In this document: piece after piece, positions 717 through 64,000 of the stretch
Position numbering within the stretch: position 1 is the stretch's first letter
Layout: every line of letters starts with the position of its first letter
DNA from: a virus
Strand: one strand, 5' to 3'
Virus record (IMG/VR): IMGVR_UViG_3300031963_000075
Coordinates: 1 to 64,000 of that record
DNA length: 64,000 bases
Notes under the pieces: generated by a model
Told to the model about the DNA's origin: nothing
Seen by the model: only the letters and a program-made list of their open reading frames with translations
Databases searched by the model: none
Made by a program: the position numbers and the translations under genes

Positions 717-1246
717 ATTATATACCAATTTCCGTTTCTCACCATAACAGTAAGAGACATATAGTTTATATTCATATCAACGTATGAATTACCATCAATT
801 AAACCTGATGTTGGTGTTAATCTTATTCTGTATGTACCACAAGTTCCAGATTCATCTTTTATTGTTATAAAATAACCATCTTTACCAACAGTAGATGGTA
901 AAGTCAAATCTACATTCGAACTTCCACTAATACCCCAATATGATTTGTCCCAAATTAATGTTTGTGATGTTGTTATACCTGTTACGGTATAAAAATCGCT
1001 TCCACCAGTATAGAATCCTGTTACATTAAATGTTCCTCCCGTATTATTTCTAAATGTTACTGTTCCGTTAGAATATGTTCCACCAGTCACAAAAACATCA
1101 AAAAAAGCATCAAAAACTTGTTGTATCGACCCTTTATATGACGAACCGTCAGGATTTCCTTGAGAAACATCAGTCGGATCGACCACATGAATTAAGTCAG
1201 TTGGTTTAATGTATGAAATGAAAGTTCTATCGGTAAGATAACCCAT
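713..1246 (-). CDS. Tail fibre-like structural protein
   Basis: 177 aa; VTGGTYSNGTVTF repeat; C-terminal LTLP...ITIKD...LIDG...GNWYII domain typical of phage fibre proteins. Confidence 0.6.
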   Translation of the reverse strand: MGYLTDRTFISYIKPTDLIHVVDPTDVSQGNPDGSSYKGSIQQVFDAFFDVFVTGGTYSNGTVTFRNNTGGTFNVTGFYTGGSDFYTVTGITTSQTLIWDKSYWGISGSSNVDLTLPSTVGKDGYFITIKDESGTCGTYRIRLTPTSGLIDGNSYVDMNINYMSLTVMVRNGNWYII

Positions 1247-3759: not shown

Positions 3760-3778
3760 ATTTTATAAATATTATTTT

Positions 3779-14745: not shown

Positions 14746-17700
14746 TTGTTTGTGAGTTGTTTACATAAAGTTTTATAAACCTGTCAAGTGCGGTAAAACC
14801 ATTATTCAACCCAAAATAAAAGTGGAATGGTGCTCCCATAAGTATTGGGTCTTGACCTGGTGAATTAGGTGCTCCATAAACTACGTTTGTAATTGATGGG
14901 TCAGGAGATGGAGTAAAATTAGTTATATGCCAATCTTGTGTTGTAGTTGTTTTGAAATAATCTGATGTTTGTGGGTCTAAATCTTGATATCTTGATTTAT
15001 AAAAACCGTTGTTTGTTGTTAAAATCTGTGTATACCAATTGTTATTTTCTGTTCCGAAAATATTTTGAGTTGGTGTTGTTATTTGCCATTTATAAAAAGG
15101 CACTTCTTGAGTTGATGGATAACCAAAATTATAACCAACAAAAGGAGTTAAATTATATGTTTGAACTCCAGGTGAATATCTTTTTCTAGTGACTGTTTGT
15201 TCTGAATCTGATTGGTAAAAAACACCGAAAACAGGTCTAGCAGGTGACTGTGTATCTTCACCAACAAAAAGATAGTTATTTGGGTAATTCTCATTTAAAT
15301 ATGGTTTAACTTTAAACTCACTGTTTGCAGAAAAGGCTTGTGCGAAATCACCGTCAATTCTATCACCACCTCTATTACTATTAAAGAACTGTATAACTCC
15401 AATTCCTTCACCTTCATTACTGTTTGTGGCGATAGGTAACATTTGTTGTACTATAGTTTGGTTAATTAACCTTGAAATAATTCCCATTTGAAGTATATCT
15501 GAGTCATCATTATATGATGTTGACTTCATTTGATTAACAAAATAACCCTCAAGGTTTTCATTACCACAAACTTGATTTATAAAACCATCTCGTGGTCCTA
15601 AATCAACTATTGTTGTTGGTGATTGTAATTGTTTGTCATTATATCCAGGATTACTAACAACCAATGATGCTAAATTGTTAGGAGGTGTAGGTGATGGTTT
15701 ACCAATAAATTGATTAATAAATCTATCATAAGGTGACGATCTATAATAAAAACTATTTTGTGTGTCATCAAACACAATTGTATCTCTACAATAATTATAA
15801 GTGGGGTCTGTTACTGAGTTTGATGCGTATGTTGCGGTTTTATTAAACGACGGCATATATAAGAAACCGTTAATCCAATTGTTTTGGAATACTCTAGCAA
15901 ACACTCCTCGACAAGCGGCCAACATCAAAAGATATCTAACTTTCCATTCTAAAAATAATAAAACATCTTCTTTATATTCTGTAATATATTTTTTATTCAA
16001 TAGACAATAACAACCTTTTACTACTCTATCATCAGGTACGTCACAATTAGTACTGACACCAAAGTTAGTCCCTGATCCAGTATAACATTTTAATGATGTT
16101 AATCCTTCACAAGTAAGAGTGGATGTAAGACCTGTAATTAATCCTGATGAGTCAGCATAATTACCTGTCGGTGGTGTACCAGGCGATGATAATGTTGGTG
16201 TACTTCCGGCACTTCCTGGTTTGAAGTAATAGAAATTATTGTTTTGATGTAATCCATAACCCGTTTCAGAACCTACACCATCTTCCGTTCTTGTTGATGT
16301 TGGTAATCTATCACTTCTCATAACAAGTTTTGTTTCGTCAGAAAAGTTTACGGTACTTGCAAGATATCTATAATACGCTCTTGAATATAACGCATTGTAA
16401 CCACTTGGTGGATCCCCATACTCGTCGTTTGTACTAACACTATCTAAATAACAATAATATGTTGGTTGATTTGAAGGACCGTCTTGTGGAGTACCTGTAC
16501 ATCCAACCCCTGAACTTGTTGGTGAACCCGCACCAATGAATGTTCCTCCAACAAAATAATCTTGTACGTATTTAGGTATTACTTGATTGAAAGGGGAGTT
16601 TGTTAGAAGGTTATACGGTGCGGATGATTGGGATGATACAGGAATAAACACTGGTGATGTTGATGGTGTATATGACCCTGAATTATCATCAGTAGATAAA
16701 TAATAATAAGGTAATGTCGAAGTAAATGCCGTAAATTGTCCAGGTGTCAAATCAAAAGTTAATGATGGAAAATATAAATTTGTTGTAGTATTATCCAAAG
16801 TATCATGAGATAATGGTTTAACATTATTAGTTGAGAGAGGTTGAATCGGATAGTTGAAGTAATATTCTCCTGTCACTATTGGACCTGTACCATAAGATGT
16901 CTCACCAAAAATATATGATAAGTCATATTCAATTTCTTGTTTAGGAGTGAAAGGGTCAACACCTCTAGTTAATATAATTACTTCAAGTGAATTTCTGTTT
17001 GAGGCTTCAACATTGTCAATTGCCGGTCCTAAATTTTGAAAAAGTGGGTCAGTATTTGTATATGGAAAACATTGGTTCTCATACACGAATTGAATTTCAT
17101 GAAGTAAATATGTTAATGGATAATAACCTACATTGGTTATGTTAGCTAAGTTATAGAATGAACTATATGTCATACCTGTTATGACTTGGAAGTACTCTAT
17201 ATCTGTTGGGTATTGTAAATAATTGTCTGTATCTCCAGTATTCAATAAGTAGACATTTGCGGTAATTCCGACAGAACCATTAGAGGAAGGGTTGGCATAA
17301 TCAACAGTTCTTGATATTGGTGCAGATACGTTACCAAAAGCAGTAACCCCTGTAATTGCGTTATTATTGAATTGGTTTTCAGTCGCTCCTGTTATATTGA
17401 CAGAACAATTTGATGAATTTGGGTCTTGGAAGGTAACCAATTCTCCTGTCCCCAATTGTAAGGTTGTTCCCGCTTTAGCCAATAATACTATAACTTGGTC
17501 TTCTATTGGGTCACTTGGTGTTGAGGTTAACGACGGGTTCAAAACTGTTTTTATTTTATTGACACCTGTGCCAGGTGCGGAACCTACTGAATCATAAAAA
17601 TATTTATCTCTCGTATTAAATTCATTTAGTTTTTGGGGATAAGTTTCTCTTGTTGGGTAAGCAAACCATCTTTCATCACCACCGCTTGTTAATTCAGCGG

Positions 17701-20245: not shown

Positions 20246-20319
20246 TAAATTATCTTTTTTTGATAAATAGTTTATTTCCTATTTTCAAAAAATAATCACA
20301 ATACTTGAAAAGGAAATTA

Positions 20320-22161
20320 TCAGCTGAATGTTACTGTTGATAAATTAAGAACACTAACTCTAATATCAACATTTGGGAATCGAACTTGATAAACCTGTGT
20401 TGGGTCGGCAAATATTGTATCTGATATCAAACCTATTTGTTTTGTTGACGGATTAGAATAAGGTTGTGATGTCTGAGCCGATGAATATTGTCCTCCTACT
20501 TTATTAAAGACTTGAATGTCGTCTATAGATAATACACCATTCTCTGATTGTATTTGTCTTCTTAGTTCAGATATATTGACATTTTCACCTAATTGTCTAT
20601 TAACTGGTGACATATATGTTGAGACTATATCTATTATTTTAGCAATTATCGCTCCTTGACTTTGAGATGAATCTAAAACAACCGATATATCAAATCCTAA
20701 ATCAATCACATTTGCACTTTCAACTGAAATGTAATCATTTATCATTCGGTAATTGGAAAGGTAATTTGCAATATTTGTTTTAATTGCATTTGGGGTTACT
20801 GATGTTAGTTTTCCACTAGAGTCGTATGAAAGTATTTTTATTTTAATTTTATTATTTTCTTCAACTATTGAGACTTTAGAGGGTGCTCCAAACTGTGAGG
20901 GCATAGTTCTCAATATAGAATCATAATCGTTAACCGTCACCGCTCTGTTTTGAGCAGAGAAATTAAACGCAACCAAATTTCTTATTTCTTCTAACGTAGG
21001 TGCAGGTGCTCCTCCAATGGCGGCAATTGGGTTCGAACAACTTAATGAATTTACAGTAGTTGTATTTATAATTTCTGATGGTCCGTTTACAAAAAAGTTA
21101 CTCCTTTGTACTTGACTAATAACTCCTACACCAACATTACTTGAAACTCCTCCACCAACTCTATACTGTATAAACAAAGTTGAGTTTGATTTTAGCGTAC
21201 TACCTAATCCTAAATTATCTGAATATTTATTTAGGTTCAAAACAATCCCATCTCTTGCAAAATCTCTTAATTGATTTTCTGCTGAATTGTTTCCACCACC
21301 AAAAGTCATTTTCATAAAACCTTGTGGTGTATATTCAGTTATAAATTTGTCACTTGTTGTTATATATTTTCCTATCTTTATACCAGGCGCATCAGACGGT
21401 TTAGTTGGGTCTTCAACAAAAACTCTATCTTCTACTAATGACCTTACTTCATACCACCTATTGGTTGTAGACAAAAATTCTTGGTCTGTGGGAACATTTG
21501 TGTAAGCGGTTCCATCTTTGACAATTACACTAGTCACACCTAAAACATTTCTTTCGGGTAAAAATAATTCAAAAAATGGTCTAACGTCATTTGGAGTAAT
21601 GATTCTTTTAAAAACTTTTGTTAAACCGTTAACAACAACTTCTCTTTTTGTTATCGTATAATTAAGTAGTCCTCCATCAGCATCAAAATTAGGTCTTACA
21701 ATTCTTGAGTTTGGTTGTCCTTCCCCATTAAATTGTGAAGAAAAGTCTATATCGTATACCGTTTCAAATGATTGTCCAGCACCGTTTACTTGTGTTCCTC
21801 TTCTTAAAATCCCACAATATCTAATATCTTCTTTATCACCAAATGCAGGTACAGTTATAGAAAAATCCACTAATGAAACAGAGGGTCTTTGTCCAGGAAT
21901 TTTTAAACCATAAGTTCTTGCTATATTATATAATGAGTTTTTTTGTTGAGCAAATTGTAAAACAGTTTCTTGTAAACTTCTGTCAATTTGATAATTAAGA
22001 TTATCGGCAACTGCCGCATTCATATCCATCAAAACTGAAAATACAGATGCGTCGTTAAAATTTTGTATTAACTCAGGATAATATGTTTTTACAAAATTTA
22101 TAAGTTCCCCTCTTACTGCTTGGAAGTCCCTTACTGTATACGAAATCTTTTTTTCTGCCAT
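20320..22161 (-). CDS. Baseplate wedge subunit (T4 gp6 / baseplate J-like)
   Basis: 613 aa; ISYTVRDFQAVRGEL start, AQNRAVTVNDY motif; adjacent to gp25-like gene. Confidence 0.85.
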   Translation of the reverse strand: MAEKKISYTVRDFQAVRGELINFVKTYYPELIQNFNDASVFSVLMDMNAAVADNLNYQIDRSLQETVLQFAQQKNSLYNIARTYGLKIPGQRPSVSLVDFSITVPAFGDKEDIRYCGILRRGTQVNGAGQSFETVYDIDFSSQFNGEGQPNSRIVRPNFDADGGLLNYTITKREVVVNGLTKVFKRIITPNDVRPFFELFLPERNVLGVTSVIVKDGTAYTNVPTDQEFLSTTNRWYEVRSLVEDRVFVEDPTKPSDAPGIKIGKYITTSDKFITEYTPQGFMKMTFGGGNNSAENQLRDFARDGIVLNLNKYSDNLGLGSTLKSNSTLFIQYRVGGGVSSNVGVGVISQVQRSNFFVNGPSEIINTTTVNSLSCSNPIAAIGGAPAPTLEEIRNLVAFNFSAQNRAVTVNDYDSILRTMPSQFGAPSKVSIVEENNKIKIKILSYDSSGKLTSVTPNAIKTNIANYLSNYRMINDYISVESANVIDLGFDISVVLDSSQSQGAIIAKIIDIVSTYMSPVNRQLGENVNISELRRQIQSENGVLSIDDIQVFNKVGGQYSSAQTSQPYSNPSTKQIGLISDTIFADPTQVYQVRFPNVDIRVSVLNLSTVTFS

Positions 22162-22167
22162 ATAATA

Positions 22168-22626
22168 TTAAATATTCAAAATAATGAAATCTCCACTTTC
22201 GAAAGATTCACTAGTTATTTTATAATCTATTCTAACTTTTGCCGTATGTTCTAATTGACCAATGTTAGGAACTGTGAATTCTTTTTGGTCATTACCACTA
22301 ATATACGTACCTTTATTTTCTAATTCTGTAGATGCGTCTGTGATTTTAATGTTGGTAATCAATACTCCAGGCATATATTGTTCGACAGAATCTCTAATTT
22401 CTGATTCTATCTCAGCGAATGTGGGTCCATCTAATGGTTCAAAAATATATTCATATATTCTTGTTCCAAAATCAGGTAAATAATATCTAGACCCCTTTCT
22501 TGTTAATAATAAGTGTGTTAAATTAGAACGAACTTCTTCTGATGAATAGTCAGTTAAATCTAAAAACTTCCCATTGAAGGAATCTCTAAAGGGGAAGGTA
22601 ATACCATATGTTACTCCATTTGCCAT
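22168..22626 (-). CDS. Baseplate wedge subunit / sheath initiator (GPW/gp25 family)
   Basis: 152 aa; NLTHLLLTRKGSRYYLPDFGTRIYEYIFEP gp25 signature. Confidence 0.9.
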   Translation of the reverse strand: MANGVTYGITFPFRDSFNGKFLDLTDYSSEEVRSNLTHLLLTRKGSRYYLPDFGTRIYEYIFEPLDGPTFAEIESEIRDSVEQYMPGVLITNIKITDASTELENKGTYISGNDQKEFTVPNIGQLEHTAKVRIDYKITSESFESGDFIILNI

Positions 22627-22985: not shown

Positions 22986-24845
22986 TTAAACAATTTCACA
23001 AGCTCCGCCAGCACAAGCTACTTCACCTCTTAAATCTGTATTGTCTTGTAACTCGATAACTTTTGTTAAATCAACATCTTTCAAAGTGTTAACTAATCTT
23101 TCAAAATCTTCTTTTGTACAATCTTCAAATGGAGCTTGTGTGTAAGTTCCTCCGTTATAAGGTAGAACAGACAAACCATTGTAGTATTTTCTGTTTTTCC
23201 ACATCCAATCACCTACAAGTTCCCATTCATCTTCTTTGATTGAAACTGTCGCTGATACATTATGTGAGTTCTGTCCACCTCTGTGTCCACTTCTTACCCA
23301 CTCTTGTGATACTTTCTTAACTCTTTCCAACATTTGGAACACAGATTCGTATCGTAGAATTGAACCTTCAGGTGCCATTTGAGGGATAGTAATTACAGCT
23401 GTATCATGAGGACGGAAGTATTCGTCTTCTACCAACTCTGGATGGTTGATTGCAAGATAAGAATAAATCGCTTCATTCTTACCAACACGGATTCTTCTCA
23501 AATAATAGTCATTATGCCAAGCGTGAATTCCTGAAGAAGTTCCCAATACTAATGATGATGTCCCTGAAGGTTTAACGGTTGTTGTTCTTGCTGCTTTATT
23601 AATTCCGATGAGGTTTGCAACTCTTTCGTTTTCTTCTTTTACCGCCTGTGCCGCAGCTTTCATATCATAACCTAAAACAACACCAGAACCAATACCTGTC
23701 ATACCAACACCAATAAGTGCGTCTTTTTCTGTTGTTCTTTTCCATACATCACGTAGGTAGTGGAAGTCAGTATATCCCGCTTGTAGTGTTCCGATGAATG
23801 CGGCACCTCTAACTCTTTTTTCAAAATCTTCTTGTGACTCAATGTCCGAAGCGTTTACCTCACACAAGTTACAGAATTGATAAGGACGAAGCCCAATTTC
23901 ACAACAAGGGTTTGTTCCCCAATCTTTGTCATTTGACAAGTAGATTCCTGGCTCTCCTGCTCCTGACAATTCAATTCGTTTCCAAAGTTCCATAAAATAT
24001 TCTTGTGTTACTTTGTGACGAAGAAGAACTGCTGAGTTATTTGCTCTACCTCTTTGTGGATTGTTCTCCCACCAATTACCTGACTTACAAGAAATCATTT
24101 CATCATCATCAGCACTGAATAATGAGATAAGTGCCGCTCTACGAATACCACCTGCTAATACCGCATCTGCAATATGACATACAATATCGTGAGTTTCAAT
24201 CGGGGTTAGTTTTTCTCCTTCTTGTTTTGCGTCCAACACTTTTGTAATGTTATGAATACAATCTTTAAGTGGTTGAGGTCCTGGTGCTTTTCCTCCTGAT
24301 GTTACAAGTAACGCTCCTTTATGACGAATATCAGAAAAATCAAACACAGGTGTAGATGATTTTGTCCCCAAGTATGATTCAATTAATACTTTAATAGCAT
24401 CTGCCCATCCTTCGATTGAATCTCCGATGAGGTATCTTCTTGTTCTGTTTGGATTTGGTTTTTTTATTTCAGGTAGTTTATCTACGTGGTGTTTTTGAAC
24501 TGAGAATCCAACTCCTGTTCCACCTAATAATAGGAACATAGTTTCTGCAAACGCATCTGTATGGTCGATTGGTAAGTAAGCACAATTGTAAACTCTGTTT
24601 GGCGAGATTTCAATTGGTTTACCACCAAATTGTAATGATCTCATTGATGGAAGAATTTTTTTATCATATACCATTTGATATACTTCTTCAATCTGATCTT
24701 TGATTTGTGGGTATTTCTTTTGGTGCATCTCTTTGTTTCGTGTCACCAATTCTTCCCATGTTTCCCTTCTATTTAATTCGGGAATAAATTTAGCGTATTT
24801 CATATACACTGTAATATCACTCAATATTTTTTGCGAAATATCCAT
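22986..24845 (-). CDS. nrdJ: Adenosylcobalamin-dependent (class II, monomeric RTPR-type) ribonucleotide reductase
   Basis: NCAY, TNPCCEI, TTVKPSGT motifs and C-terminal ACAGGACEIV redox pair; likely ATG at 24845. Confidence 0.92.
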   Translation of the reverse strand: MDISQKILSDITVYMKYAKFIPELNRRETWEELVTRNKEMHQKKYPQIKDQIEEVYQMVYDKKILPSMRSLQFGGKPIEISPNRVYNCAYLPIDHTDAFAETMFLLLGGTGVGFSVQKHHVDKLPEIKKPNPNRTRRYLIGDSIEGWADAIKVLIESYLGTKSSTPVFDFSDIRHKGALLVTSGGKAPGPQPLKDCIHNITKVLDAKQEGEKLTPIETHDIVCHIADAVLAGGIRRAALISLFSADDDEMISCKSGNWWENNPQRGRANNSAVLLRHKVTQEYFMELWKRIELSGAGEPGIYLSNDKDWGTNPCCEIGLRPYQFCNLCEVNASDIESQEDFEKRVRGAAFIGTLQAGYTDFHYLRDVWKRTTEKDALIGVGMTGIGSGVVLGYDMKAAAQAVKEENERVANLIGINKAARTTTVKPSGTSSLVLGTSSGIHAWHNDYYLRRIRVGKNEAIYSYLAINHPELVEDEYFRPHDTAVITIPQMAPEGSILRYESVFQMLERVKKVSQEWVRSGHRGGQNSHNVSATVSIKEDEWELVGDWMWKNRKYYNGLSVLPYNGGTYTQAPFEDCTKEDFERLVNTLKDVDLTKVIELQDNTDLRGEVACAGGACEIV

Positions 24846-24872
24846 TTTTAACAAATTTAATAATTTTTATTT

Positions 24873-47004: not shown

Positions 47005-50000
47005 TTAAACATCTTCGAAAGATGCTCCTGTTGGTGTTATGTAGAATGTTATATCAATAAATTCAAGTGAACGTGTTGGTTTGATATAAATTTTACCAGT
47101 CATTTGATTTCTATCTAAATCAGCAGTGTCGTTAGAAACTGTAACTCGGAAATCGTAAAGACCTCTGTCTCTTCTTATACCGTCAAGAATTGGATTAACC
47201 GCATTTAAGAAATCTTGTCTTACTTTTTCATCGTTTTGGTCAAACAACAACCTTACTGAAACCGCTGAAATTAATTTACGTGCTTGTAATAACAATCTTC
47301 TTACGTTAATTCTATCAAGTGCAGACTCTCTAACTTGTAGGGTTTTGTTACCCCAAATTACAGTACCAACATCTGAGAAAGTTGCAATTGGGTTAATTCT
47401 TCCTAAATATAGAACATCTCTATCTTCTTGTGTTAACTTTTTACGTGCTTTAATTGAATTAACAATACCACGAGTGTAACCCGCCGCTGCGAACCAAGGG
47501 AATGCTATATTATCGGTCAACGCTAAGTTTCTTGTAACTTCTGCCGTTGGTGGTATATAGATTTGAGTGTTATTAACACTGTCTCTTGTAAGAACCCAAG
47601 GATAGTAAGTTGCGGTATAATTGGAATCAATTCCAGTCTCTTCTAAATTGTCAACTGCTTCTTGTGGGTAAATAAGACCGTCAGCTCCTGTTGTTGTAGG
47701 AAGTAAAAGGTTATAATCTGGAGTTGTTGTTATATACAATGAATCCGCTCTTTCTGTCTCAATCATTTCTATTGTAGACTCAACCAAATTACTATTGTTA
47801 ACATAGTCAATACCTGGAGTTACAAATAAATTTATATTAACCGCTTCAGGATTAGAGAATGTTCTGATACCTAATAGATATGCGTAGTAGTCAGTATTTG
47901 CATAATCAGTTGTACCGTCACCAACAGAGATTTGTTTAAACGCTCCCCAACCAACTGCGTTTGGATATCTTGTAGTTGCACAAGCTCCGTTTAAATAACC
48001 TGTTCTACCTAAAACATATTTATCTTCATTTGTTCTTCTTTCACGGTATATATCCCATCCATCAAAACCTCCTTGTACTAACAAGGTAAATTTACGTGCA
48101 AATAATCTGTAATATGGGTTTGTATCAACAACAGGTTCAGAACTAAAGTCCGCACTACCAACGTAAAATCTTGGTTCACCACTTGTTGAGAAACCGTTAG
48201 AAATTGTTATACCACTTGCATTTTTATCCATGTGGAATCCTCTTGTTCTATATAACCAAGGTGACGATTCAGTTGCAAAACAAATGTTTGATGGATTTCT
48301 TTTACCCACATATTCGAAGAAACTTGGGTCGTAACCATAATCAGCACTTGTTGAGAAACCTAAGAATGTTTTTCTTATGTTATCACCAGAAGATAATCCC
48401 GCATCATCAGTTCCTGAAGGAGTTCCAAACGGAGGATTGAATACTAATTCTCCTGGAAAATCATACTTAGTTTTGAAAATTGGGAACGGTGATTTTCCTC
48501 CGCTATACTCTCTAAAGTTATAACCTTCGAAACCACAAGGTAAAGCATCTATTGGTGCATCCTCGTTCATTTCTACCATAATATATCTAGATTTGAGTTC
48601 AAACTCTCCATCTAATGTACCTACCTTTTTAGCAATAAAATTATTTTCTTGCGGATTCATTGAACAGTTAGTGTACTTTTCTAAAACAACAGGGTTTGAG
48701 TCTGTATCATAGTAATCTCTCACTAACACGGTAAATGTTTCGTTTGCGAAAGATATATCTGAAATAGAAATTTTAACTTCTGTGTTTGCACTGTTACCGT
48801 CAGATATAGTGTAAAATTTGAAAAGGTTATAAACTTTAGAACCTCTTACTTCTGATACTACCCAAGGACTTTCAGGTGATTGATATCTTTCTAAATACCA
48901 ACCAATTGATGTTGGGTCTTCACTTTGTGCTTCAGGTAAAGAGATTAAATCACATTTTAAACCTCTAATATATCCTTTGTTGTATGCCCATCTCAACATT
49001 GTTTGGAATCTTTCCTCAACAAAAAGTGGTACGACATTTCTAGGTTTTCCAAAGTTGTTTCCACCGAAAACTTTTGATATATATTCTGAATCACTTGTAG
49101 AGAAAGATGTAACAAACGTGAAGTTGTTACCTAAATAGTTTGTTGCGTTTATAGCAAATTTAGCAAACGGGTTTTTAAGTACACTTTCATATTGACCTGT
49201 ACAATCCATAGTTACGTCAGTTATACCAGTAATTTCATATCTTGGATTATTTTCATCACTGTATGTAGATATACCTCTAGATCTCAATGTCGCAACAACC
49301 AAATCATCATAATTTGTATACGCCATACCCGAATAAACATATATCATACCTATCATTGTACCCGAAAAACAATCCACCACAGTTGTAGTTGTTGTAGTTG
49401 TGGGAACAACAGGAGTTGGGGTGATACAAGGATTTGGTGTTGGTTCGGGTGTTGGTGCTGGTGTAGTTGTAGATGTTGTTATTGGGTTTATATTAGTTAA
49501 ACCACTAACTACTGACCAAAATGAGAACCCTGAATATTCCGCATTACCGATATTTTCAAACAAAGCATAATACCATGTATCATTAAATGGTGATGTGAAG
49601 TCAGTCAAACTTGCTGATGGTGACGGAACATTAAAAACATTTGTCGATGCAGTATATCCACTTGAGAGTATGTCATAATCATCTCCATCGATACTACCAA
49701 AATATGCTATAGATGTTTCTTCAGTTGCCGGATTTAATATTCTTTGATACGCAAAAAACTGTAAATCACTAAGTAATGTAGATGTATTACCATTAAATTG
49801 TTCATATTGTTCGTTTAATAATACTTCTATTTCATCAGGAAAAGATTCAAAAATTACAGATGAAACACCATTAGTACATCCTGTAAATTCTACAGTGAAA
49901 GGAATTGTTTTAGGTAAAATACAAACTGGTTCACAACTTCCAGATGGAGTAACCGCACTTAAACAATATGGGTTAATTGTTGTTGGGTCAACGTTCGCAC

Positions 50001-50337
50001 TAGTTGTAATAGACCAAGAAGGACCAGCGTCGTATCCTGATAGACCTAATATTCTTGAGACAAAAAGTTGATTTGATTGTTGTAAATAAGATTTAGCAAT
50101 ATATGCTGCTTCATATTTAGGTATTTGGGTGTTAACGAATTTTTCTGGAGATGTTCCCCCAAAGTAAGATTGGAATTCTTCGTAGTTTCTAATAAAAATA
50201 GGTTCGAAAGCCGGTCCTTTCAGGGTTTCTCCAGCAATCCCAAGAGTAGTAACACCAACACTTTGTGCTACAAAACTCAAATCTACTTCAGAAGTATAGA
50301 CACCTGGTGAAACAAAAATTTTACTATTAGTTGCCAT
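47005..50337 (-). CDS. Contractile tail sheath protein (T4 gp18-like) with large insertions
   Basis: 1110 aa; FVSPGVYTSEVD, KGPAFEP, PWFAAAGYTRG, INPIATF, WGNKTLQ, LDRINVRRLL, IKPTRSLEFI. Confidence 0.95.
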   Translation of the reverse strand: MATNSKIFVSPGVYTSEVDLSFVAQSVGVTTLGIAGETLKGPAFEPIFIRNYEEFQSYFGGTSPEKFVNTQIPKYEAAYIAKSYLQQSNQLFVSRILGLSGYDAGPSWSITTSANVDPTTINPYCLSAVTPSGSCEPVCILPKTIPFTVEFTGCTNGVSSVIFESFPDEIEVLLNEQYEQFNGNTSTLLSDLQFFAYQRILNPATEETSIAYFGSIDGDDYDILSSGYTASTNVFNVPSPSASLTDFTSPFNDTWYYALFENIGNAEYSGFSFWSVVSGLTNINPITTSTTTPAPTPEPTPNPCITPTPVVPTTTTTTTVVDCFSGTMIGMIYVYSGMAYTNYDDLVVATLRSRGISTYSDENNPRYEITGITDVTMDCTGQYESVLKNPFAKFAINATNYLGNNFTFVTSFSTSDSEYISKVFGGNNFGKPRNVVPLFVEERFQTMLRWAYNKGYIRGLKCDLISLPEAQSEDPTSIGWYLERYQSPESPWVVSEVRGSKVYNLFKFYTISDGNSANTEVKISISDISFANETFTVLVRDYYDTDSNPVVLEKYTNCSMNPQENNFIAKKVGTLDGEFELKSRYIMVEMNEDAPIDALPCGFEGYNFREYSGGKSPFPIFKTKYDFPGELVFNPPFGTPSGTDDAGLSSGDNIRKTFLGFSTSADYGYDPSFFEYVGKRNPSNICFATESSPWLYRTRGFHMDKNASGITISNGFSTSGEPRFYVGSADFSSEPVVDTNPYYRLFARKFTLLVQGGFDGWDIYRERRTNEDKYVLGRTGYLNGACATTRYPNAVGWGAFKQISVGDGTTDYANTDYYAYLLGIRTFSNPEAVNINLFVTPGIDYVNNSNLVESTIEMIETERADSLYITTTPDYNLLLPTTTGADGLIYPQEAVDNLEETGIDSNYTATYYPWVLTRDSVNNTQIYIPPTAEVTRNLALTDNIAFPWFAAAGYTRGIVNSIKARKKLTQEDRDVLYLGRINPIATFSDVGTVIWGNKTLQVRESALDRINVRRLLLQARKLISAVSVRLLFDQNDEKVRQDFLNAVNPILDGIRRDRGLYDFRVTVSNDTADLDRNQMTGKIYIKPTRSLEFIDITFYITPTGASFEDV

Positions 50338-56646: not shown

Positions 56647-56987
56647 CAAATATACCACAAAGAAAAAATGTTATTAGGTATCAAAACACAATTGATATTC
56701 CTAAAATTGATGACAAGGCGGTTATTATTTCCGCTAAAGAGTATTGGACTAGAGATGAAAACTTATTAATTGTAAGAGGAGTGGATTCATCCGAAGTTAC
56801 TTTAAACTCAATTATAACTAAAAGAATAATAATAAAGTCATTGACTCAAGTTTTAGTTAAATCAGACACAGGTTTAATTGATGAGGAATGGGATGAGCTC
56901 CTTTTGGAAAAAGGAGCTTGCGTACAATTTCAGTTCGTAGAAGGTAATTGGTATATACTATCCTCCGACGGTCTCAAAATGTCTTAA
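56643..56987 (+). CDS. Small protein with fibre-type C-terminal domain
   Basis: 114 aa; VTL...IIIK...LIDE...GNWYIL resembles the C-terminus of 713..1246. Confidence 0.55.
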   Translation: MTNIPQRKNVIRYQNTIDIPKIDDKAVIISAKEYWTRDENLLIVRGVDSSEVTLNSIITKRIIIKSLTQVLVKSDTGLIDEEWDELLLEKGACVQFQFVEGNWYILSSDGLKMS

Positions 56988-59789
56988 TTCTTCTTCTCCT
57001 AAGAATTTTAACATAAATGGGTCTGCCAATCTATACATATGGAATGGTGATTCACCAACCTTATCCCAAAAAACCATTTCTTCATCTGATATTTGCATCA
57101 CATCTTCCAGTTTGTCTTGGTCTCCCTCCTCAAAAGGTTGTCCATTAATTAACTCACATTGTTCAGTTGTGAAGAAAGGTCTGTCTTCTGGATTTTTAAT
57201 CAATAAAGATTTTCTAACCTCTTGTTTAAAAACAACAAGTAACGGTTCTACTCTTTTGTTAAAAGTCGCAATTGCTCTTTGAATGTTATATTCTCCTAAC
57301 ATATCAGGATTGTTTTCTAAATCTGTTGGGTCTAATCTATAACAATTTAATTGGATTATTGAATCCATGTTATCTTCAGGGTATGTACCATATCCGTCAA
57401 AATAACTATCTAAATGTTCTTGTGTCCATCCTTTTTTAGGTTTGTTAACTTTTTGAACGTCTCCATGTGATGCCTTAGTTCCATTGTTAACGTAATAGAT
57501 AATATCACCAAGATTCACATTTAAGTTTTCTCTGATTGCAAGTTCCATGTGTGCTTGTCTTGACATTAAAGCCCCCGCCTTTGTCTTGGTTTTACTTCTT
57601 GCAATATAATCGTCAATAGATTGTTTGACTTTTGACTTGTTTGCAATTTGAGCCAAAGGAATTTTTTGATCGAATATTCTTTGTAGGTATTCATAATAGT
57701 ATTCTACAAATCCTTTACCATCACCATCAAGTAACATTTTAATCGCTTTATCTAAAAATACCTCAATATACTTTGGCATCTTTTTAGATTTGATTGAGTT
57801 ACCTGTAAGTTTGATTTTACCTTTACCTGTGATAAGGGCGTAGTTCTTTCTTGCTAAGTTAATACAGGCGGGCCACTGTCCATCAGTATCAAGTGCCATT
57901 TCACCTCTCATTGCTAAGTCATTAAACTCCATCACATCAGCTTCTTCACCTACATATTCTTTACCCTCCTTAACTTTCCAATTAAGTCCCTTACCAATGT
58001 ATCTTCTACTTTCTACACCATCGGGAACAGAGAAGTTAATACCATCCGTGTCCATCACAAGTGGAGTATATCCTCTATCCATAAAGAAATGAATCATCAT
58101 TCTTAGATACTGTCTTCCTGTACAAGTAATCATCTCACCTTTATCCATGTCACCCCAATGAAATACTTGTGGTGCAGATAATGAACCAAAGAATGCATTG
58201 ATAAAGATTTTGATTGGTAACTGTTTTCTGTCAAAAGAAAGTGACTTCTTCTTGTCAATACTCGCATATTCCTCAGCCAAATTCTTATACATAATACGGG
58301 TTGTTCTAAAATGTGATAACAAACCTTTCATCGCACCTGTTATATCGCATTCGGGAAATACATCATGAACCAACTGAATAGATGGGTATAGTGAAGAGTA
58401 GTCAAGTTTTAATACGTTCCTTGAATATCCTGTTCTGATTAACCTTGACAAACCACCAACAAAGTTTCTCTTCTCGTTTTTAGCAGGGATTGCAAGTCCA
58501 TGTTTGTAAGACCATGCTAACATCAACATTTTCCATAATGTCGCAGTTCCCATTGTTGAAACTCTTTCATATGTTGTTGGTACAAGTGAGGCGAGAAGAA
58601 AAGTTCCTTGATTGAACTCCTCATCAACAAGTAGGGTTTCCTCCAAGTCATCGTCAAGATATCTCTCTACAATATCGTCACCTGTTGTTTTGATATATAT
58701 GTCATTTCTTCTTTCACAAACCTCATCAATCTTGGTATCAATACCAACTTTTTTATAACCACCATTTTGAATGTTTAACCAATATTCGTTTTTATTAGAA
58801 TACATGGGGGCAATCTTGGTATGGTCAATATAGATACGGTCTTTTGCTTCCGCATCAATAAACTTTGTAATGTACTTAAGTCCCGCTTCTTTGATATTAG
58901 AATTGATTGCTTGTGCTCTACGAACTGAGTGTAGAATATCAATTACGTTATAACCCCACATCTGAACTTGATTATATTTCTCAACTTCATTTGCTAATTT
59001 TAACATTGACTCCTTTTGGGATATTGGTTTGTTTGAATTAAGAGATGTATTAAGTTTTTTGATATCCAAGTTTAGAGCTTTACATCTCTCAAAAATCCAA
59101 TACCAGTCAAAGTTCGCTGAGTTGTAACCTGATATGATTGATGGTTTAATTTCTTCTATTGTCCTGAAAAACTCAACAAGTCCTCTTCTTTCTTCATCTT
59201 CGTCTTTACACTCAATTACTTTAAGAAAACCTTTGTTAGTTTTCATACCTATCATAAATATCCTACCGTCTTTTGGTTCTAAAGCGGTAGTTTCCAAGTC
59301 GAATACAAACCTCGTGATATCGTTGTATTCCTCGAATCCTTTGAATAACCTTTTTTCTTTTGAGATGAGGTATTGTTCTACAGGCGGTAGAACCATTATT
59401 TTATCTTTTGTTTTTTCACCCCAAGGGTCTATTCCTCCGTCTCTAAAAAACTGAATGAGTGTTCTATATCCTTTAAGGGATTTAACCATAAAAGTTAAAC
59501 CCCTTTCTAATCTTTCATTACCATCGGTACGTAACTTCTCAATTACAATACCATATTTAGACATTGCCTCTTTTTGTAATCCTTTAGAATTACTATAAAA
59601 GTTTAAACCACGTAAATCACCAACCCATGCAAATGCAATAAGGTTATCTTTGACAATAGATTTACCTTTGTCAGGGACTTCTTTGATTTTAAAAATTTTG
59701 TCGGATGCGTAATCGTACTCTATTGATACGATGTACTCTTCTGGGTCATTCCCTTCAAGGAACTTTTGAATCTCTTCTTGTGAAATCAT
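56958..59789 (-). CDS. polB: Family B DNA polymerase
   Basis: 943 aa; Exo I FDLET, Exo II GYNSANFD, motif A LDYSSLYPS, motif B KIFINAFFG, motif C MDTDG. Confidence 0.95.
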   Translation of the reverse strand: MISQEEIQKFLEGNDPEEYIVSIEYDYASDKIFKIKEVPDKGKSIVKDNLIAFAWVGDLRGLNFYSNSKGLQKEAMSKYGIVIEKLRTDGNERLERGLTFMVKSLKGYRTLIQFFRDGGIDPWGEKTKDKIMVLPPVEQYLISKEKRLFKGFEEYNDITRFVFDLETTALEPKDGRIFMIGMKTNKGFLKVIECKDEDEERRGLVEFFRTIEEIKPSIISGYNSANFDWYWIFERCKALNLDIKKLNTSLNSNKPISQKESMLKLANEVEKYNQVQMWGYNVIDILHSVRRAQAINSNIKEAGLKYITKFIDAEAKDRIYIDHTKIAPMYSNKNEYWLNIQNGGYKKVGIDTKIDEVCERRNDIYIKTTGDDIVERYLDDDLEETLLVDEEFNQGTFLLASLVPTTYERVSTMGTATLWKMLMLAWSYKHGLAIPAKNEKRNFVGGLSRLIRTGYSRNVLKLDYSSLYPSIQLVHDVFPECDITGAMKGLLSHFRTTRIMYKNLAEEYASIDKKKSLSFDRKQLPIKIFINAFFGSLSAPQVFHWGDMDKGEMITCTGRQYLRMMIHFFMDRGYTPLVMDTDGINFSVPDGVESRRYIGKGLNWKVKEGKEYVGEEADVMEFNDLAMRGEMALDTDGQWPACINLARKNYALITGKGKIKLTGNSIKSKKMPKYIEVFLDKAIKMLLDGDGKGFVEYYYEYLQRIFDQKIPLAQIANKSKVKQSIDDYIARSKTKTKAGALMSRQAHMELAIRENLNVNLGDIIYYVNNGTKASHGDVQKVNKPKKGWTQEHLDSYFDGYGTYPEDNMDSIIQLNCYRLDPTDLENNPDMLGEYNIQRAIATFNKRVEPLLVVFKQEVRKSLLIKNPEDRPFFTTEQCELINGQPFEEGDQDKLEDVMQISDEEMVFWDKVGESPFHMYRLADPFMLKFLGEEELRHFETVGG

Positions 59790-59845: not shown

Positions 59846-59874
59846 AATATAGGAGTAAAAATTACTCTTATCAA
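59846..59874 (-). promoter_or_regulatory. Sigma70-like polB promoter with palindromic spacer
   Basis: Minus strand TTGATA-N17-TATATT; spacer contains GAGTAA-N3-TTACTC. Confidence 0.55.
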
Positions 59875-60512
59875 CTGAGATTTTGAAAATGTTTAGCTAT
59901 TCTTTTACTGAGTCTTACTCTTGGGTCATCTTCAGTCCTCCCAACCACATTATATGGTACTATAAATCCAAAACTTAAGAATACCCTTCTTGAATTGAAC
60001 TCGTTTGTCCAATGTTTATAGAGTGAAGCTTCAAAACCATATAAATCGGTTTCTTCAATGTGGATAGATTCTTTGTCAACAAAAAAATTATAATTGTCAG
60101 ATAAAACACTTATATTACATTTATAGTTTATGTAACCGTCAAGTGATGCGTCATAATGTGGATTTATTTTTCCACCTTTACTCATATCAACCGCTTGTAA
60201 AAAAATGTTATCTTTTGGAAAATTAAATTCTTCAGAAATTTTATTTATTAAATTATATATAAAATTAGGTAGATGTTCTTTTGAAACATCGGATATTGAT
60301 TGAAATTTTGTAATATAATTTGTTAAAGGTGTATTGGAAATGTCAAACATAAAAGATTTACCATTAAGCGTTTTGGATAATTCTGTTAGGTGGTGATTAC
60401 TATTGTTACCACTATGATTAACAGAATCAATCCATTTTACTATTTGGTCTACTTCATCTTTTGAGATGAATTTTTTTTTTATCTTACAGGTTTCCAATTC
60501 CGTATTTTCCAA
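59871..60512 (-). CDS. 2OG-Fe(II) oxygenase
   Basis: 213 aa; INPHYD (HxD), YKHWT (distal His), RVFLSF (2OG-binding Arg). Confidence 0.75.
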   Translation of the reverse strand: MENTELETCKIKKKFISKDEVDQIVKWIDSVNHSGNNSNHHLTELSKTLNGKSFMFDISNTPLTNYITKFQSISDVSKEHLPNFIYNLINKISEEFNFPKDNIFLQAVDMSKGGKINPHYDASLDGYINYKCNISVLSDNYNFFVDKESIHIEETDLYGFEASLYKHWTNEFNSRRVFLSFGFIVPYNVVGRTEDDPRVRLSKRIAKHFQNLS

Positions 60513-60750
60513 TTTTTTTTAAATTATGTTTTTCCAAAAACTCTTTTGGGTTCATTACTTCAATAATTGTTAATTCAGCAGAATCCATAAGTTGTTTTGC
60601 CTTTTCTTCAGGAACTGCCATAACACACAATTTATGAGTTGCTGGTAATTCTCCTGTTGGTGATAAATCTATTTTTAAGATATTATCATTTTTCATTTTT
60701 TCTCTTGCTTGAAGAACTTTGCTTTCTTCACATAATATACAGATTCTCAT
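60484..60750 (-). CDS. Hypothetical protein
   Basis: 88 aa; LSPTGELPATH; overlaps the oxygenase start. Confidence 0.6.
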   Translation of the reverse strand: MRICILCEESKVLQAREKMKNDNILKIDLSPTGELPATHKLCVMAVPEEKAKQLMDSAELTIIEVMNPKEFLEKHNLKKIGKYGIGNL

Positions 60751-60770
60751 GTTTTGAATTTCTTATACGT

Positions 60771-63206
60771 TTATATAGTTATGTTGATGGTATCCGAACT
60801 ATCATAATAGGACAACCTTTTACTTCCACCCTGTCTCTCAAAAATTTGACAAGTATATGACTCATAAACTGATGGGTTAGAACTTACACCCGTTACTGTA
60901 ATAACAACATCATCATCAACATCCGTACCTCCTATTTGTGTTCCAAGTATTGTTATGGTATCACCTGTTTGATATAATTTGCCTTGTGTATTACCACTAA
61001 CACCAACTACAGATCCTCCTGAAACCTCAATATCAAAAGATGCATTTACACCAATACCGTTTGTTACACCAGTTAATGACGTGTATGTACTATTTATTGC
61101 GGTAGTTCCTGTTGCAGTAAATGAAAATCCTGTGATGTTTCCATAATTGGTTGTAAAATCAACTGTAGTGATAAATGTGTCTATAATATTCCATTGAAAA
61201 TTGTTACCTATTGTATTTTCATTAAAATCATTACCTATTGTATTTTCATTAAAATTTTCACCTATTGTATTTCCAGCAAATTCATTACCTATTGTATTTC
61301 TACTAAAATCAGGTCCTATTGTATTAGTATTAAACGCGGAACCCCAAATGTTATTACTAACATAACCTAAAAAGTCATTATTAAAAGTATATGAACCAAT
61401 ATTATTACCATAAGTACCTCCTGAAAACTGATTACCACCAACAAAAGAATCAACATTGTTTTCTTCAAATGACAGAAGCATCATATTACCTTTAAATTCA
61501 TTTGATATTTTGTTGTGATTGAAATTATCATAAATTGTATTATTTTCAAATGTATTACCGATAACATTATTAGTGGTTTGTCCACTTATGTCGTTATTAA
61601 AAAACGAAACACCAACGTTATTTTTATAAAAATCTTGAGTTATTATATTGTTGTTGAAATTGGTACCTATTTTATTTTCATTAAATGCGCTAATACCAAT
61701 GTTATTAATATCCCCTAGTGTGTTATTATTAAAATTATCACCAACTGTATTACTCTCAAACGAACTATATATATTATTACTGAAGAAACTAGGTCCGATT
61801 ATATTAACAATAAAATCTGAATATACTTTATTAATAAAAAACGATTCTCCGATTATATTATTTGTAAAATTATTAGTGTCTAATAAATTTTCATAAAAAC
61901 TACCAACAATTTGGTTATTCTCAAATCCTGAATCAATTATATTATTATAAAAGTCACTACCAATATTATTGTTTATAAAGCCATCTTGTGACATTGTTAT
62001 AAAGTTAGACGAAAAGTTTACACCAATTCTATTATTGTCAAAATCAAACCCATCATCATCCCCAATCATATTATCTTGAAATCTCTCCCCAATCAAATTA
62101 CCATCCATATCACAGTCGATAATATTTCTTTGGAAGTCCGTCCCGACTGTATTATCGTCAAAATCATTTGTAATAATATTATACTTAAAATTTGAACCAC
62201 AAATATTTGAATCCATGTCTTCGTTAAATGTATTACCTTCAACACCTCCACCAAAATAGTTATTTCTATAAGTTCCTGATAAAAATACATTGTTGGATAG
62301 TAAAAATGTGTTGTAATTATTAAAATTACCCAAATAAGTATTTAAATTTAAATTATTATTAAAAGTATAATATTCTGAAAACCCTGTATATCCAGAACTT
62401 ATAACGTTACATTGGAATGGACTCATATGTTGAGGTAAAGATATACCTCTTGAATAATATGTGTCGGATATGGTAGGTATTGTAGTTCCTGTGACATACA
62501 TTTCGGTATCACTTGTTATACTTGTAATTTCAAAATACCCAAAAGAACCAATCGGAAATTGACCAAAATTATTGTAAACTCCTAAAATGTCTCCAACAAC
62601 AAAGTCACTGTTAAAAAAAGTTGTAAACCCTGTAACAAGTCCTGTTGGGTCAATAGTAATACTACCATCTAGTAATTGTTCAGAAAAAAAACCTTCGTAT
62701 CTTATAAATTGAACTGCTCTGAAATCATAATCGGCTCTGTTATTTTTTTCATCAATTCTTTCTGTAATCCTACCCTTCGCAGGACTTGATGTGACCTCAG
62801 TTGTATTCCAATTTATATCATAAGTAATTTTATCTTGTGGGTATAATGTTGAATATACAGTTGGTGAAAATCCTGTTGTTGAAGTTGCTAATAATAACAA
62901 TGGTTCAGTATTACCCGTTTTATAGTTACCTGTCACAATTGGGTCACCAACATTATTGAAATTAGGTTGGTCGTAACAAGTTTGAAAATCGGTCATTAAA
63001 TAATAACCGCCAGGTGTTAAAGTTCCTCCAGTATATAAAGAATATAACTCATCGTAAGTTACTTCTTCATAAGTTCCTCCACCTGTTGATAAACCTGAAT
63101 AAGGAATATGAAAAGTGAAACCACTTTGTTCGATTGGAAATAACGAATTACTTGTTATTCCTGTTGATAGTGCTAATTCTCCTATTGTTTTTCCTGAAAG
63201 TATCAT
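60771..63206 (-). CDS. Beta-helix tail fibre/spike-like protein
   Basis: 811 aa; long run of 9 aa NxIGxxFxx repeats; YYLMTDFQT and KGRITERID...YDFR phage fibre motifs. Confidence 0.7.
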   Translation of the reverse strand: MILSGKTIGELALSTGITSNSLFPIEQSGFTFHIPYSGLSTGGGTYEEVTYDELYSLYTGGTLTPGGYYLMTDFQTCYDQPNFNNVGDPIVTGNYKTGNTEPLLLLATSTTGFSPTVYSTLYPQDKITYDINWNTTEVTSSPAKGRITERIDEKNNRADYDFRAVQFIRYEGFFSEQLLDGSITIDPTGLVTGFTTFFNSDFVVGDILGVYNNFGQFPIGSFGYFEITSITSDTEMYVTGTTIPTISDTYYSRGISLPQHMSPFQCNVISSGYTGFSEYYTFNNNLNLNTYLGNFNNYNTFLLSNNVFLSGTYRNNYFGGGVEGNTFNEDMDSNICGSNFKYNIITNDFDDNTVGTDFQRNIIDCDMDGNLIGERFQDNMIGDDDGFDFDNNRIGVNFSSNFITMSQDGFINNNIGSDFYNNIIDSGFENNQIVGSFYENLLDTNNFTNNIIGESFFINKVYSDFIVNIIGPSFFSNNIYSSFESNTVGDNFNNNTLGDINNIGISAFNENKIGTNFNNNIITQDFYKNNVGVSFFNNDISGQTTNNVIGNTFENNTIYDNFNHNKISNEFKGNMMLLSFEENNVDSFVGGNQFSGGTYGNNIGSYTFNNDFLGYVSNNIWGSAFNTNTIGPDFSRNTIGNEFAGNTIGENFNENTIGNDFNENTIGNNFQWNIIDTFITTVDFTTNYGNITGFSFTATGTTAINSTYTSLTGVTNGIGVNASFDIEVSGGSVVGVSGNTQGKLYQTGDTITILGTQIGGTDVDDDVVITVTGVSSNPSVYESYTCQIFERQGGSKRLSYYDSSDTINITI
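61204..61338 (-). repeat. 27 bp imperfect tandem repeat (about 5 units, NTIGxxFxx)
   Basis: cctattgtatt core recurs every 27 bp, with units starting at 61204, 61231, 61258, 61285 and 61312. Confidence 0.75.
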
Positions 63207-63269: not shown

Positions 63270-64000
63270 TTAGGTTGGTGTTGGAGTTGGTGTTGGAGTG
63301 GGTTCTTGTTCAAATTGTAGTTCGTTAACTAAAATATTTAATGGAAAATCAATGTCAATAGGTTGGATGAACACTTCTCCCGTTTTGGTTAACAAACTAT
63401 AATTTAAAGCAGGATTAGTAGAAATTGTTTGACCTGATGTCTCATTTTTTGGTATTATTACTGTTGACCCTATTGTTATATCCCCACCACCAATTAAATC
63501 TAAATTAACACTTATTGGTAATGAGACGTTTTTATTGATAGGGATATTTGAATTTACAGTAAAATAAGTAACAACTGAACCACTTGAGACATAAATACTT
63601 ACGGTATATATAATTTCTGGATCTTTATATTCCAAATAAGAATTGTTTTCCACATCAATGTATTCATGATTTTCGGTTATAATTGGGTTAATTAATACTT
63701 CAAACGTTGGTGTAACTGTAGGTGTTGGTGTAACTGTAGGTGTTGGTGTAACTGTAGGTGTTGGTGTAACTGTAGGTGTTGGTGTAACTGTAGGTGTTGG
63801 TGTAACTGTAGGTGTTGGTGTAACTGTAGGTGTTGGTGTAACTGTAGGTGTTGGTGTTGGGGTTATAGAGTAGATTTCATTTATAGTATATGTTAAATAA
63901 TTTGGACTAAATAGTATGTTAGAAAAAACATCATTTCTTGTAAGATTATTGTAATCCACATCTAAAATAACTTGTGTTGTCCCCGAAATATCTTGTAAAT
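63270..64000 (-). CDS. Pro/Thr-repeat structural protein, 5'-truncated by the window end
   Basis: Frame stays open upstream of the GTG at 63959 to the window edge (LQDISGTTQVILDVDY...); (TVTPTP)n tract. Confidence 0.7.
   Translation of the reverse strand, partial: LQDISGTTQVILDVDYNNLTRNDVFSNILFSPNYLTYTINEIYSITPTPTPTVTPTPTVTPTPTVTPTPTVTPTPTVTPTPTVTPTPTVTPTPTVTPTFEVLINPIITENHEYIDVENNSYLEYKDPEIIYTVSIYVSSGSVVTYFTVNSNIPINKNVSLPISVNLDLIGGGDITIGSTVIIPKNETSGQTISTNPALNYSLLTKTGEVFIQPIDIDFPLNILVNELQFEQEPTPTPTPTPT
63706..63857. repeat. Perfect 18 bp tandem repeat (GGTGTTGGTGTAACTGTA), 7 full units plus partial flanks
   Basis: Directly visible at 63721-63846; encodes TVTPTP. Confidence 0.95.

Follow-up and report, generated by a model that had tools for sequence, protein, structure and literature searches.

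Two-residue beta-hairpin turns of types I' and II' have Gly, Asn, or Asp at the first loop position, and turns of this kind are resembled by the sequence element examined here, namely the tetrapeptide [ST]-G-x-[ST] in F811, a tail fibre/spike protein of 811 amino acids (aa). F811 is encoded in the virus record IMGVR_UViG_3300031963_000075; the window, by which we mean the whole stretch of DNA analysed (64,000 nucleotides), is the first 64 kb of this 79,694-bp record, the GC content of which is 32% and the completeness 27% (CheckV). Positions marked as genome coordinates refer to the full record. The first-pass annotation, for which only the DNA letters and their translations were available, had proposed the tetrapeptide as a sequon for a modification such as O-glycosylation or as a binding site for a decoration protein. 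We found that the motif is enriched in fibre-type proteins, is specific in its positions, is conserved at particular sites, and occurs in a predicted strand-turn context; with a probability of roughly 0.6, we regard it as the conserved mark of a strand end with a tight turn, belonging to a fibre architecture that is very widespread and undescribed.

As in hairpins of types I' and II', Gly at position +1 of the motif (the first Ser/Thr being position 0) is replaced by Asn or Asp, position +2 is mostly polar, and, in the predicted structure, a strand closes just ahead of the motif, in many cases with another opening at +3. Unlike a generic hairpin, however, the motif has Ser/Thr on both flanks (66% at +3), and hydroxyl residues are preferred over other beta-branched ones. 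Another likeness is to the immunoglobulin (Ig)-like repeats of the SprB/PKD type in Bacteroidota adhesins (PF13573 and PF18911); indeed, the SprB-repeat protein encoded at 3779..7135 (PF13573, 1.8e-17) contains the strand-end tetrapeptide as V-[ST]-G-G-T-x-P-Y, with the signature at aa 281, 451, and 462. This protein is nonetheless only mildly enriched in the motif (11/35), and no match to an Ig-repeat family was obtained for F811 or the remaining enriched fibres. Furthermore, Bacillus BclA and Clostridioides BclA3 have O-glycosylated collagen-like G-x-T repeats, in which T-G-x-T occurs at every triplet. Relatives of the present phage are similarly equipped with giant G-[ST]-S collagen-like fibres, but the motifs in F811 and in a PKD-like protein (11080..12225) stand singly as turns within beta domains and do not form triple-helix repeats.

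Several glycosylation systems also need to be compared. The TibC/AAH heptosyltransferases acting on AIDA-I/TibA and the xylosylation of proteoglycans at S-G-x-G have strand-loop-strand or Ser-Gly-x-Gly acceptors; they are analogies only, as the enzyme families differ and none of them is present here. The known acceptors of GT60, the family to which the mucin Thr N-acetylglucosamine (GlcNAc)-transferase of Trypanosoma cruzi belongs, are unstructured Thr/Pro-rich or hydroxyproline sites and not folded turns, and polypeptide O-glycosyltransferases classically favour a Thr that has a Pro close by. The present genome resembles the systems of GT60 polypeptide alpha-GlcNAc transferases in having a PF11397 match and mucin-like Thr/Pro tracts in neighbouring proteins; in contrast, the [ST]-G-x-[ST] turn is unlike their known acceptors, and no prolyl hydroxylase was seen in this fragment. 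To our knowledge, no sequon of the [ST]-G-x-[ST] form has been described.

Mycobacteriophage virions are reported to be O-glycosylated by phage-encoded glycosyltransferases (Freeman et al. 2023, as cited in PMC12619734), and PMC12619734 places the glycans on the C-terminal parts of the capsid and tail-tube subunits. The locus in this study is similar in that phage-encoded glycosyltransferases lie beside structural genes, with virion proteins as the presumed targets; it differs in that the candidate targets are fibre and stalk proteins and the putative enzyme is GT60-like.

Enrichment of the motif in fibre-type proteins

We counted how often [ST]G is followed by x-[ST] in each open reading frame (ORF). 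Four enriched genes lie wholly or partly in the window:

60771..63206, minus strand: F811, tail fibre/spike protein, 811 aa, 20 [ST]-G-x-[ST] motifs
11080..12225, minus strand: 381-aa protein with a weak PKD_4 match (PKD-like protein), motif 10/12
713..1246, minus strand: 177-aa protein, motif 5/8
63270..64000 (gene continuing to genome 64700), minus strand: 476-aa "stalk" protein, motif 4/8, its C-terminal part being in the window

For F811, about 20 of 24 had been given by hand, and our recount is 20/25; the ratios of the PKD-like protein and the 177-aa protein were reproduced exactly, as were the low values in enzymes (2/7 in the family-B DNA polymerase, PolB, and 1/9 in NrdJ encoded at 22986..24854). 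When each protein was shuffled 2000 times, either globally or within 20-aa blocks, F811 was expected to have 3.5 or 3.95 motifs, respectively, and 0/2000 shuffles reached 20 (conditional binomial, 1.5e-10). In the PKD-like protein, 1.6-2.1 motifs were expected, and again 0/2000 shuffles reached 10 (binomial, 7e-6). The excess thus survives correction for both global and local composition, and a composition artefact was ruled out.

The first-pass statement that the motif saturates virion proteins was, however, too broad. Among the 53 ORFs of the 79.7-kb record, only seven are enriched: F811, the PKD-like protein, and the 177-aa protein in the window, and, in genome coordinates, those at 63270..64700 (4/8), 70033..71241 (7/14), 73266..74996 (16/22), and 75822..78743 (7/15). 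All seven are of the fibre type, and it is to fibre-type proteins that the signal belongs. In the tail/baseplate region, the three longest ORFs without annotation (1835, 2150, and 1613 aa), for which no family match was found, have a ratio of only 0.19-0.26, and the baseplate-J-like and T4-baseplate-like proteins contain zero copies. The recurrence in the sheath (47005..50337), which had also been noticed, is real (7/20), but the enrichment there is only borderline (shuffle p 0.02). Most of the sheath copies (5/7) are in one inserted domain:

49219..49884, minus strand: sheath insertion domain, aa 152-373, with 5/7 of the sheath motifs and a Thr/Pro-rich tract

Within the enriched set, Ser/Thr occupies position +3 at a frequency of 0.66 (Thr, 53%), while elsewhere between +2 and +10 its frequency stays near the background (0.14-0.31). 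The residue preceding G-x-[ST] is Ser or Thr in 61%, Gly at +1 is enriched 3.75-fold given [ST]-x-x-[ST], and position -1 is hydrophobic in 52%. The specificity for +3, the Ser/Thr before G-x-[ST], and the enrichment of Gly together define a coherent motif, phi-[ST]-G-x-T-phi (phi, hydrophobic). Codons at the motif follow the background usage, by which a DNA-level repeat or codon motif was rejected, as had been argued at the outset. The motif is also distinct, as previously noted, from the O-glycosylation sequon of Bacteroidota, D-[ST]-[AILVMT]; the six commonest residues at position -1 are Val, Thr, Leu, Ser, Tyr, and Ile, and Asp is not among them.

The excess might alternatively follow from composition or stem from collagen-like G-x-[ST] triplet repeats that have decayed. 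The proteins are indeed rich in Ser, Thr, and Gly, and fibres of 930 to >2400 aa in relatives contain G-[ST]-S triplets by the hundred; in the triplet fibre at 14799..22217 of the related locus L016, 576/634 [ST]G are followed by x-[ST]. Global and local shuffles nonetheless reject composition, and the motifs of F811 and the PKD-like protein are isolated, out of triplet register, and flanked by hydrophobic strand residues. An uninterrupted Gly at every third residue was not found in F811, triplet arrays being confined to other fibres of the relatives. We therefore consider this explanation very improbable.

Conservation and substitution pattern

F811 has no Pfam or PHROG family match, and no useful match was obtained from a sequence search of the PDB; >900 homologues exist in metagenomes, all without a name. 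Conservation was scored over 40 aligned homologues. In all of them (40/40), the motif ratio is 0.50-0.82 with a Ser/Thr content of 0.16-0.20. The K-T-G-x-T-E of aa 97 and the V-T-G-x-T of aa 239 are invariant, and L-T-G-K-T-I at aa 4 is 95% conserved, while other sites vary. When [ST]G dipeptides were sorted by the number of homologues sharing them, the ratio rose from 0.28 (1-2 homologues) and 0.29 (3-6) to 0.51 (7-15), 0.68 (16-30), and 1.00 (31-40), the Ser/Thr background in this test being 0.18. The PKD-like family behaves in the same way, with a ratio of 0.17 at private sites and 0.99 at near-invariant sites, and seven sites of the 381-aa protein are at least 87% conserved across homologues of ~52% identity. 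At private [ST]G the ratio is thus near the background, and it is the sites under purifying selection that account for the excess.

At position +1 of the aligned sites, Gly was counted 595 times, followed by Thr (45), Ser (42), Asn (39), and Asp (16). Asn and Asp tolerate a positive phi angle; the counts of Thr and Ser may come partly from overlapping or shifted motifs. The exchange ratio S:(V+I) was ~4.3 at +3 and 3.1 at position 0 as compared with 0.9 at control Thr-majority columns, a comparison with some ascertainment bias because the sites were defined by Ser/Thr.

Predicted structure of F811

The AlphaFold (AF2) model of F811, a monomer built from the alignment of 40 homologues, has a mean predicted local distance difference test score (pLDDT) of 75.6. 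In it, a poorly defined N-terminus is followed by a beta domain, after which come a long Asn-rich beta-solenoid and, at the C-terminal end, another, small beta domain:

63072..63206, minus strand: N-terminal ~45 aa, beginning with M-x-L-[ST]-G-K-T-I, 4 motif copies, pLDDT <50
62292..63071, minus strand: N-proximal beta domain, aa 46-305, with the invariant K-T-G-x-T-E (aa 97) and V-T-G-x-T (aa 239)
61152..62291, minus strand: Asn-rich beta-solenoid, aa 306-685, ~380 aa, pLDDT 84-95
60774..61151, minus strand: small C-terminal beta domain, aa 686-811, 7 motif copies in ~85 aa

We class F811 as a fibre/spike protein. Its aa 73-171 are homologous to an annotated tail fibre of Clostridium phage phiCT453A, and Foldseek gave weak matches to beta-helices of tailspikes/depolymerases, the best E-value being 1.3e-6 (Klebsiella phage depolymerases) and the template-modelling (TM) scores only ~0.10-0.18. 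The solenoid consists of short N-N-x-I-G-x-x-F coils with a regular pattern of short strands and has only two copies of the motif, both of them at turns of the coils. In the tail fibre of phiCT453A, the homologous N-domain is likewise succeeded by a similar N-rich region.

Eleven motif sites are modelled with a pLDDT of at least 70. According to DSSP, 8 of them have a strand terminating no more than two residues from where the motif begins, and at 5 a strand restarts at +2 to +4. At aa 729, the motif forms a two-residue hairpin, strand-SGGS-strand (pLDDT 79-88). The copies in the C-terminal domain are mostly at strand ends or turns, with that at aa 692 being inside a strand.

The N-terminal segment raises an alternative, in which the motif would serve as a recognition or docking element for a partner protein, such as an adaptor, a decoration protein, or a chaperone of the fibre, or for a glycan on the host surface. 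By eye, the N-terminus of F811 resembles those of the fibres at genome 73266..74996 and 70033..71241, a likeness that was not detected by BLASTP, and this segment may be a candidate for fibre docking. The first motif copies would then lie in a segment common to three fibres that may dock onto stalk proteins, and the preference for hydroxyl residues is in keeping with recognition. Most copies are, however, spread through domain bodies at strand ends, no candidate partner gene co-varies with the motif, and twenty sites per protein are too many for a docking code. For the decoration-protein binding site put forward in the first-pass annotation, in particular, nothing was found in support. A role in docking is thus quite improbable.

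A strand-end turn as the probable conserved element

In the reading that we favour, phi-[ST]-G-x-[ST]-phi would mark the passage from the end of a beta-strand into a tight turn, in which Gly (or Asn/Asp) would take the position with a positive phi angle and hydroxyl residues would stand on both flanks. The turn would have been reused many times by this lineage of jumbo phages, whose fibre and spike domains are rich in hairpins, and purifying selection would keep the motif at fixed positions of each domain. Such selection would explain why the whole family of each protein exhibits the excess while other ORFs and the enzymes do not. It would then be turn geometry, rather than modification, that selection preserves.

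Several observations weigh against this interpretation. The structural evidence comes from DSSP on a single AF2 monomer model, and the motif is found in sequence contexts without detectable mutual homology. Exchange between Thr and Ser is favoured over that from Thr to Val/Ile at both flanks, and hence the hydroxyl itself seems to be selected. Well-known beta-rich fibres have little of the motif, with 1/18 in T4 gp34, 1/6 in gp12, 8/27 in gp37, and 1/7 in the Ig-like Hoc. The fibre of phiCT453A, which is homologous to the N-domain and the solenoid of F811, has only 1/5 and reads K-T-L-E-V-E where F811 has K-T-G-x-T-E; the fold therefore does not demand the motif. Finally, a glycosylation cluster is located in the fibre module.

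The low ratios in T4 and phiCT453A also mean that the motif is typical of this lineage or architecture and is not required by beta structure itself. By these counts, the idea that fibres or Ig-like proteins of phages carry the motif as a general feature was rejected, and the first-pass concern that unrelated beta proteins might be enriched as well is answered by the T4 fibres and Hoc, in which there is no excess.

Glycosylation cluster in the fibre module

Just past the end of the window, between fibre genes and on the same strand, is a five-gene cluster at genome 64729..69945 (2729..7945 in the locus L001):

genome 64729..66411, minus strand: HtrL_YibB-like glycosyltransferase (6e-18)
genome 66414..66995, minus strand: FkbM-like methyltransferase
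genome 66999..67694, minus strand: CmcI/rhamnosyl-O-methyltransferase-like methyltransferase
genome 67695..68711, minus strand: possible GT-B protein (Atlas lead, Glyco_trans_1_2/GT90)
genome 68698..69945, minus strand: PF11397 "GlcNAc" glycosyltransferase, 415 aa (2.9e-72)

The PF11397 match scores 244.5 bits against a cut-off of 21, with the best stretch covering profile positions 97-349 of 352. PF11397 corresponds to CAZy family GT60, which also includes protist enzymes glycosylating mucin threonines. The C-terminal half of the HtrL_YibB-like protein may be a second GT-A domain (an Atlas lead only). The 476-aa stalk protein sits between F811 and this cluster. According to its Pfam description, PF11397 adds the first GlcNAc to the protein Skp1 (Dictyostelium Gnt1, on hydroxyproline). 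Our search of the literature on GT60 or PF11397 in phages gave nothing relevant.

With such a cluster at hand, the motif could be an O-glycosylation sequon, as the first-pass annotation had proposed. In that case, a cytoplasmic GT60-type enzyme of the phage would start a glycan on Ser/Thr flanking the turn, HtrL-like and GT-B enzymes would extend it, and two methyltransferases would cap it, coating the exposed hairpin turns of the fibres. The enrichment itself, specific to fibres of this lineage and absent from those of T4 and the Clostridium phage, and the hydroxyl preference on both flanks are consistent with this proposal. The same is true of the cluster, which is within 10 kb of an F811 homologue in 24-26 of 80 related loci, and of the GT60 protein, which is far more conserved (76-84% identity across thousands of metagenomic clusters) than the fibre (~50%). 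Glycosyltransferase genes beside the enriched fibres, for which the first-pass annotation had suggested looking, were thus found.

Whether the motif follows the cluster was examined in the relatives, jumbo phages of 220-318 kb with distant T4-like tail genes. In two of them, G003 (100% complete) and G005 (86% complete), GT60 is absent locally but present elsewhere in the genome. G008 (100% complete) has no match to PF11397 or PF09612, and its fibres still have 19/29, 10/15, and 17/30; this genome carries GT2, GT1, and GT2_4 genes. G006 (87% complete) is without GT60, HtrL, GT2, GT8, GT2_4, and Glyco_trans_1_2, and its one match to GT1 was marginal. It still possesses seven enriched fibre proteins, with ratios up to 43/80 (z 10.6), and in its F811 homologue the sites conserved at aa 59, 97, 239, and 595 are retained. 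In a Pfam sweep of 108 ORFs of G006, one Glyco_trans_1_3 (3.7e-35) was found among the best 25 of 74 matched families, by which G006 was ruled out as a glycosyltransferase-free, clean negative; this is probably the 359-aa ORF near 108.5 kb with the marginal GT1 match, which is far from the fibre genes at 168-219 kb.

Relatives without GT60/HtrL therefore keep the motif, and the cluster does not explain it; a strict dependence on the GT60/HtrL cluster was ruled out by G008 and G006. Neither does motif density co-vary with GT60/HtrL at the level of loci: of the 80, those with the cluster adjacent have a pooled ratio of 0.32, as compared with 0.39 for the others. As private [ST]G is only slightly enriched (0.28 as compared with 0.18), there is furthermore no sign of selection for sequon density. 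What stands of the sequon claim, then, is the enrichment and a dedicated glycosyltransferase cluster accompanying the fibre genes; the link between the two is not supported, as the motif is at conserved, predicted strand-turn positions, persists in G008 and G006, and is not higher near the cluster. Considering also that conventional Thr/Pro acceptor tracts are present in the genome, we regard a sequon as unlikely.

Every near-complete relative examined (G008 and G006) still encodes some glycosyltransferase. The two readings might also be combined: the exposed motif turns would be structure-defined acceptors, used by the GT60-like enzyme here and by non-orthologous cytoplasmic glycosyltransferases of the phage in relatives. 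The sole glycosyltransferase of G006 among those best-matched families is probably distant from the fibre genes, as described above, and we find this combination rather doubtful. If it were true, an abundant aquatic jumbo-phage lineage would sugar-coat folded fibre domains via a sequon undescribed in any organism.

Thr-Pro tracts as possible alternative acceptors

Mucin-like Thr-Pro tracts offer other candidate sites for the cluster. The longest are ~245 aa of (T-P-T-V)n in a 418-aa protein and ~170 aa in a 277-aa protein, and the 476-aa stalk protein has two; others are in the SprB-repeat protein, the sheath insertion, and a 973-aa protein. Three of them are in the window:

63684..63887, minus strand: (T-P-T-P-T-V)n tract, aa 272-339 of the 476-aa protein, a candidate O-glycosylation acceptor
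4727..4864, minus strand: Thr-Pro linker tract in the SprB-repeat protein
about 49360..49500: Thr/Pro tract in the sheath insertion

Stalk proteins with Thr-Pro tracts adjoin each fibre gene (genome 71261..72517 and 75026..75859), and in G003 the GT60 gene adjoins a Thr-Pro-rich protein. Across the related loci, tracts are present in 92% of those with the cluster and 54% of those without it (tract length, Mann-Whitney p 0.07), the loci not being independent of each other. No Thr-Pro tract was found in the 222 kb of G006, and G008 has tracts without GT60. While the link between tracts and glycosyltransferases is suggestive only, the tracts are likelier acceptors than the [ST]-G-x-[ST] motif and would be the better bet if this phage glycosylates its virion.

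Other motif-bearing fibres and a shared hairpin module

The 177-aa protein contains, at aa 51-83 (998..1096 of the window), one hairpin module of ~34 aa with the pattern V-T-G-G-T-Y ... N-N-T-G-G-T-F. The module is shared with the 576-aa fibre encoded at genome 73266..74996 (aa 56-89; 60% identity over 40 aa, E 4e-10), and a hidden Markov model (HMM) of it gave an E-value of 1e-17. In this genome, the HMM matches only these two proteins, and BLASTP among 12 fibre-region proteins likewise gave only the 40-aa match between them; a single shared module as the source of all motifs was thereby rejected. In other metagenomic phage fibres, the ~34-aa module, with its two T-G-G-T hairpins, occurs in tandem, with up to 20 matched stretches per protein, and Pfam has no model for it. 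The superfamily of the 576-aa fibre comprises ~1000 representative clusters, and 150 representatives have a pooled ratio of 2929/5260 (0.56). The AF2 model of the 381-aa PKD-like protein has a pLDDT of 40.6. The fibre at genome 70033..71241 has a Peptidase_S74 chaperone domain, and the 973-aa protein of the fibre module (genome 75822..78743) has Cys-rich segments, poly-Thr tracts, and a C-terminal papain-like Peptidase_C1 domain (3.6e-6), which is an unusual enzyme for a virion protein.

As for the collagen-like fibres of the relatives, they carry hundreds of G-T-S/G-S-S triplets with regularly interspersed G-I-D and were observed at L016 14799..22217, L009 14801..17599, and G003 312217..317847. 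One such ORF exceeds 2400 aa and runs past the end of its locus.

Gene neighbourhood

The gene at 56958..59789, identified as that of the family-B DNA polymerase, directly abuts the fibre module (59871..63206) on the same strand. This gene order is kept in many related loci, as p943, p213, p88, F811. In the Pfam sweep of the 222-kb genome of G006, we also noticed a class II tRNA synthetase core domain, IMPDH/GMP reductase, PAS domains, a family-A DNA polymerase, and an Fe/Mn superoxide dismutase.

Implications

If the motif is structural, as we favour, it would provide a compact sequence fingerprint for undescribed, very widespread phage fibre modules that have no Pfam model, and this fingerprint could help to annotate receptor-binding proteins in metagenomic jumbo phages. 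The cluster found along the way may matter more than the motif; namely, a strongly conserved GT60-type enzyme, other transferases, and two methyltransferases beside Thr-Pro stalks constitute a candidate system for virion glycosylation outside mycobacteriophages, and glycosylation of virions would be relevant to the shielding or tuning of fibres by phages.

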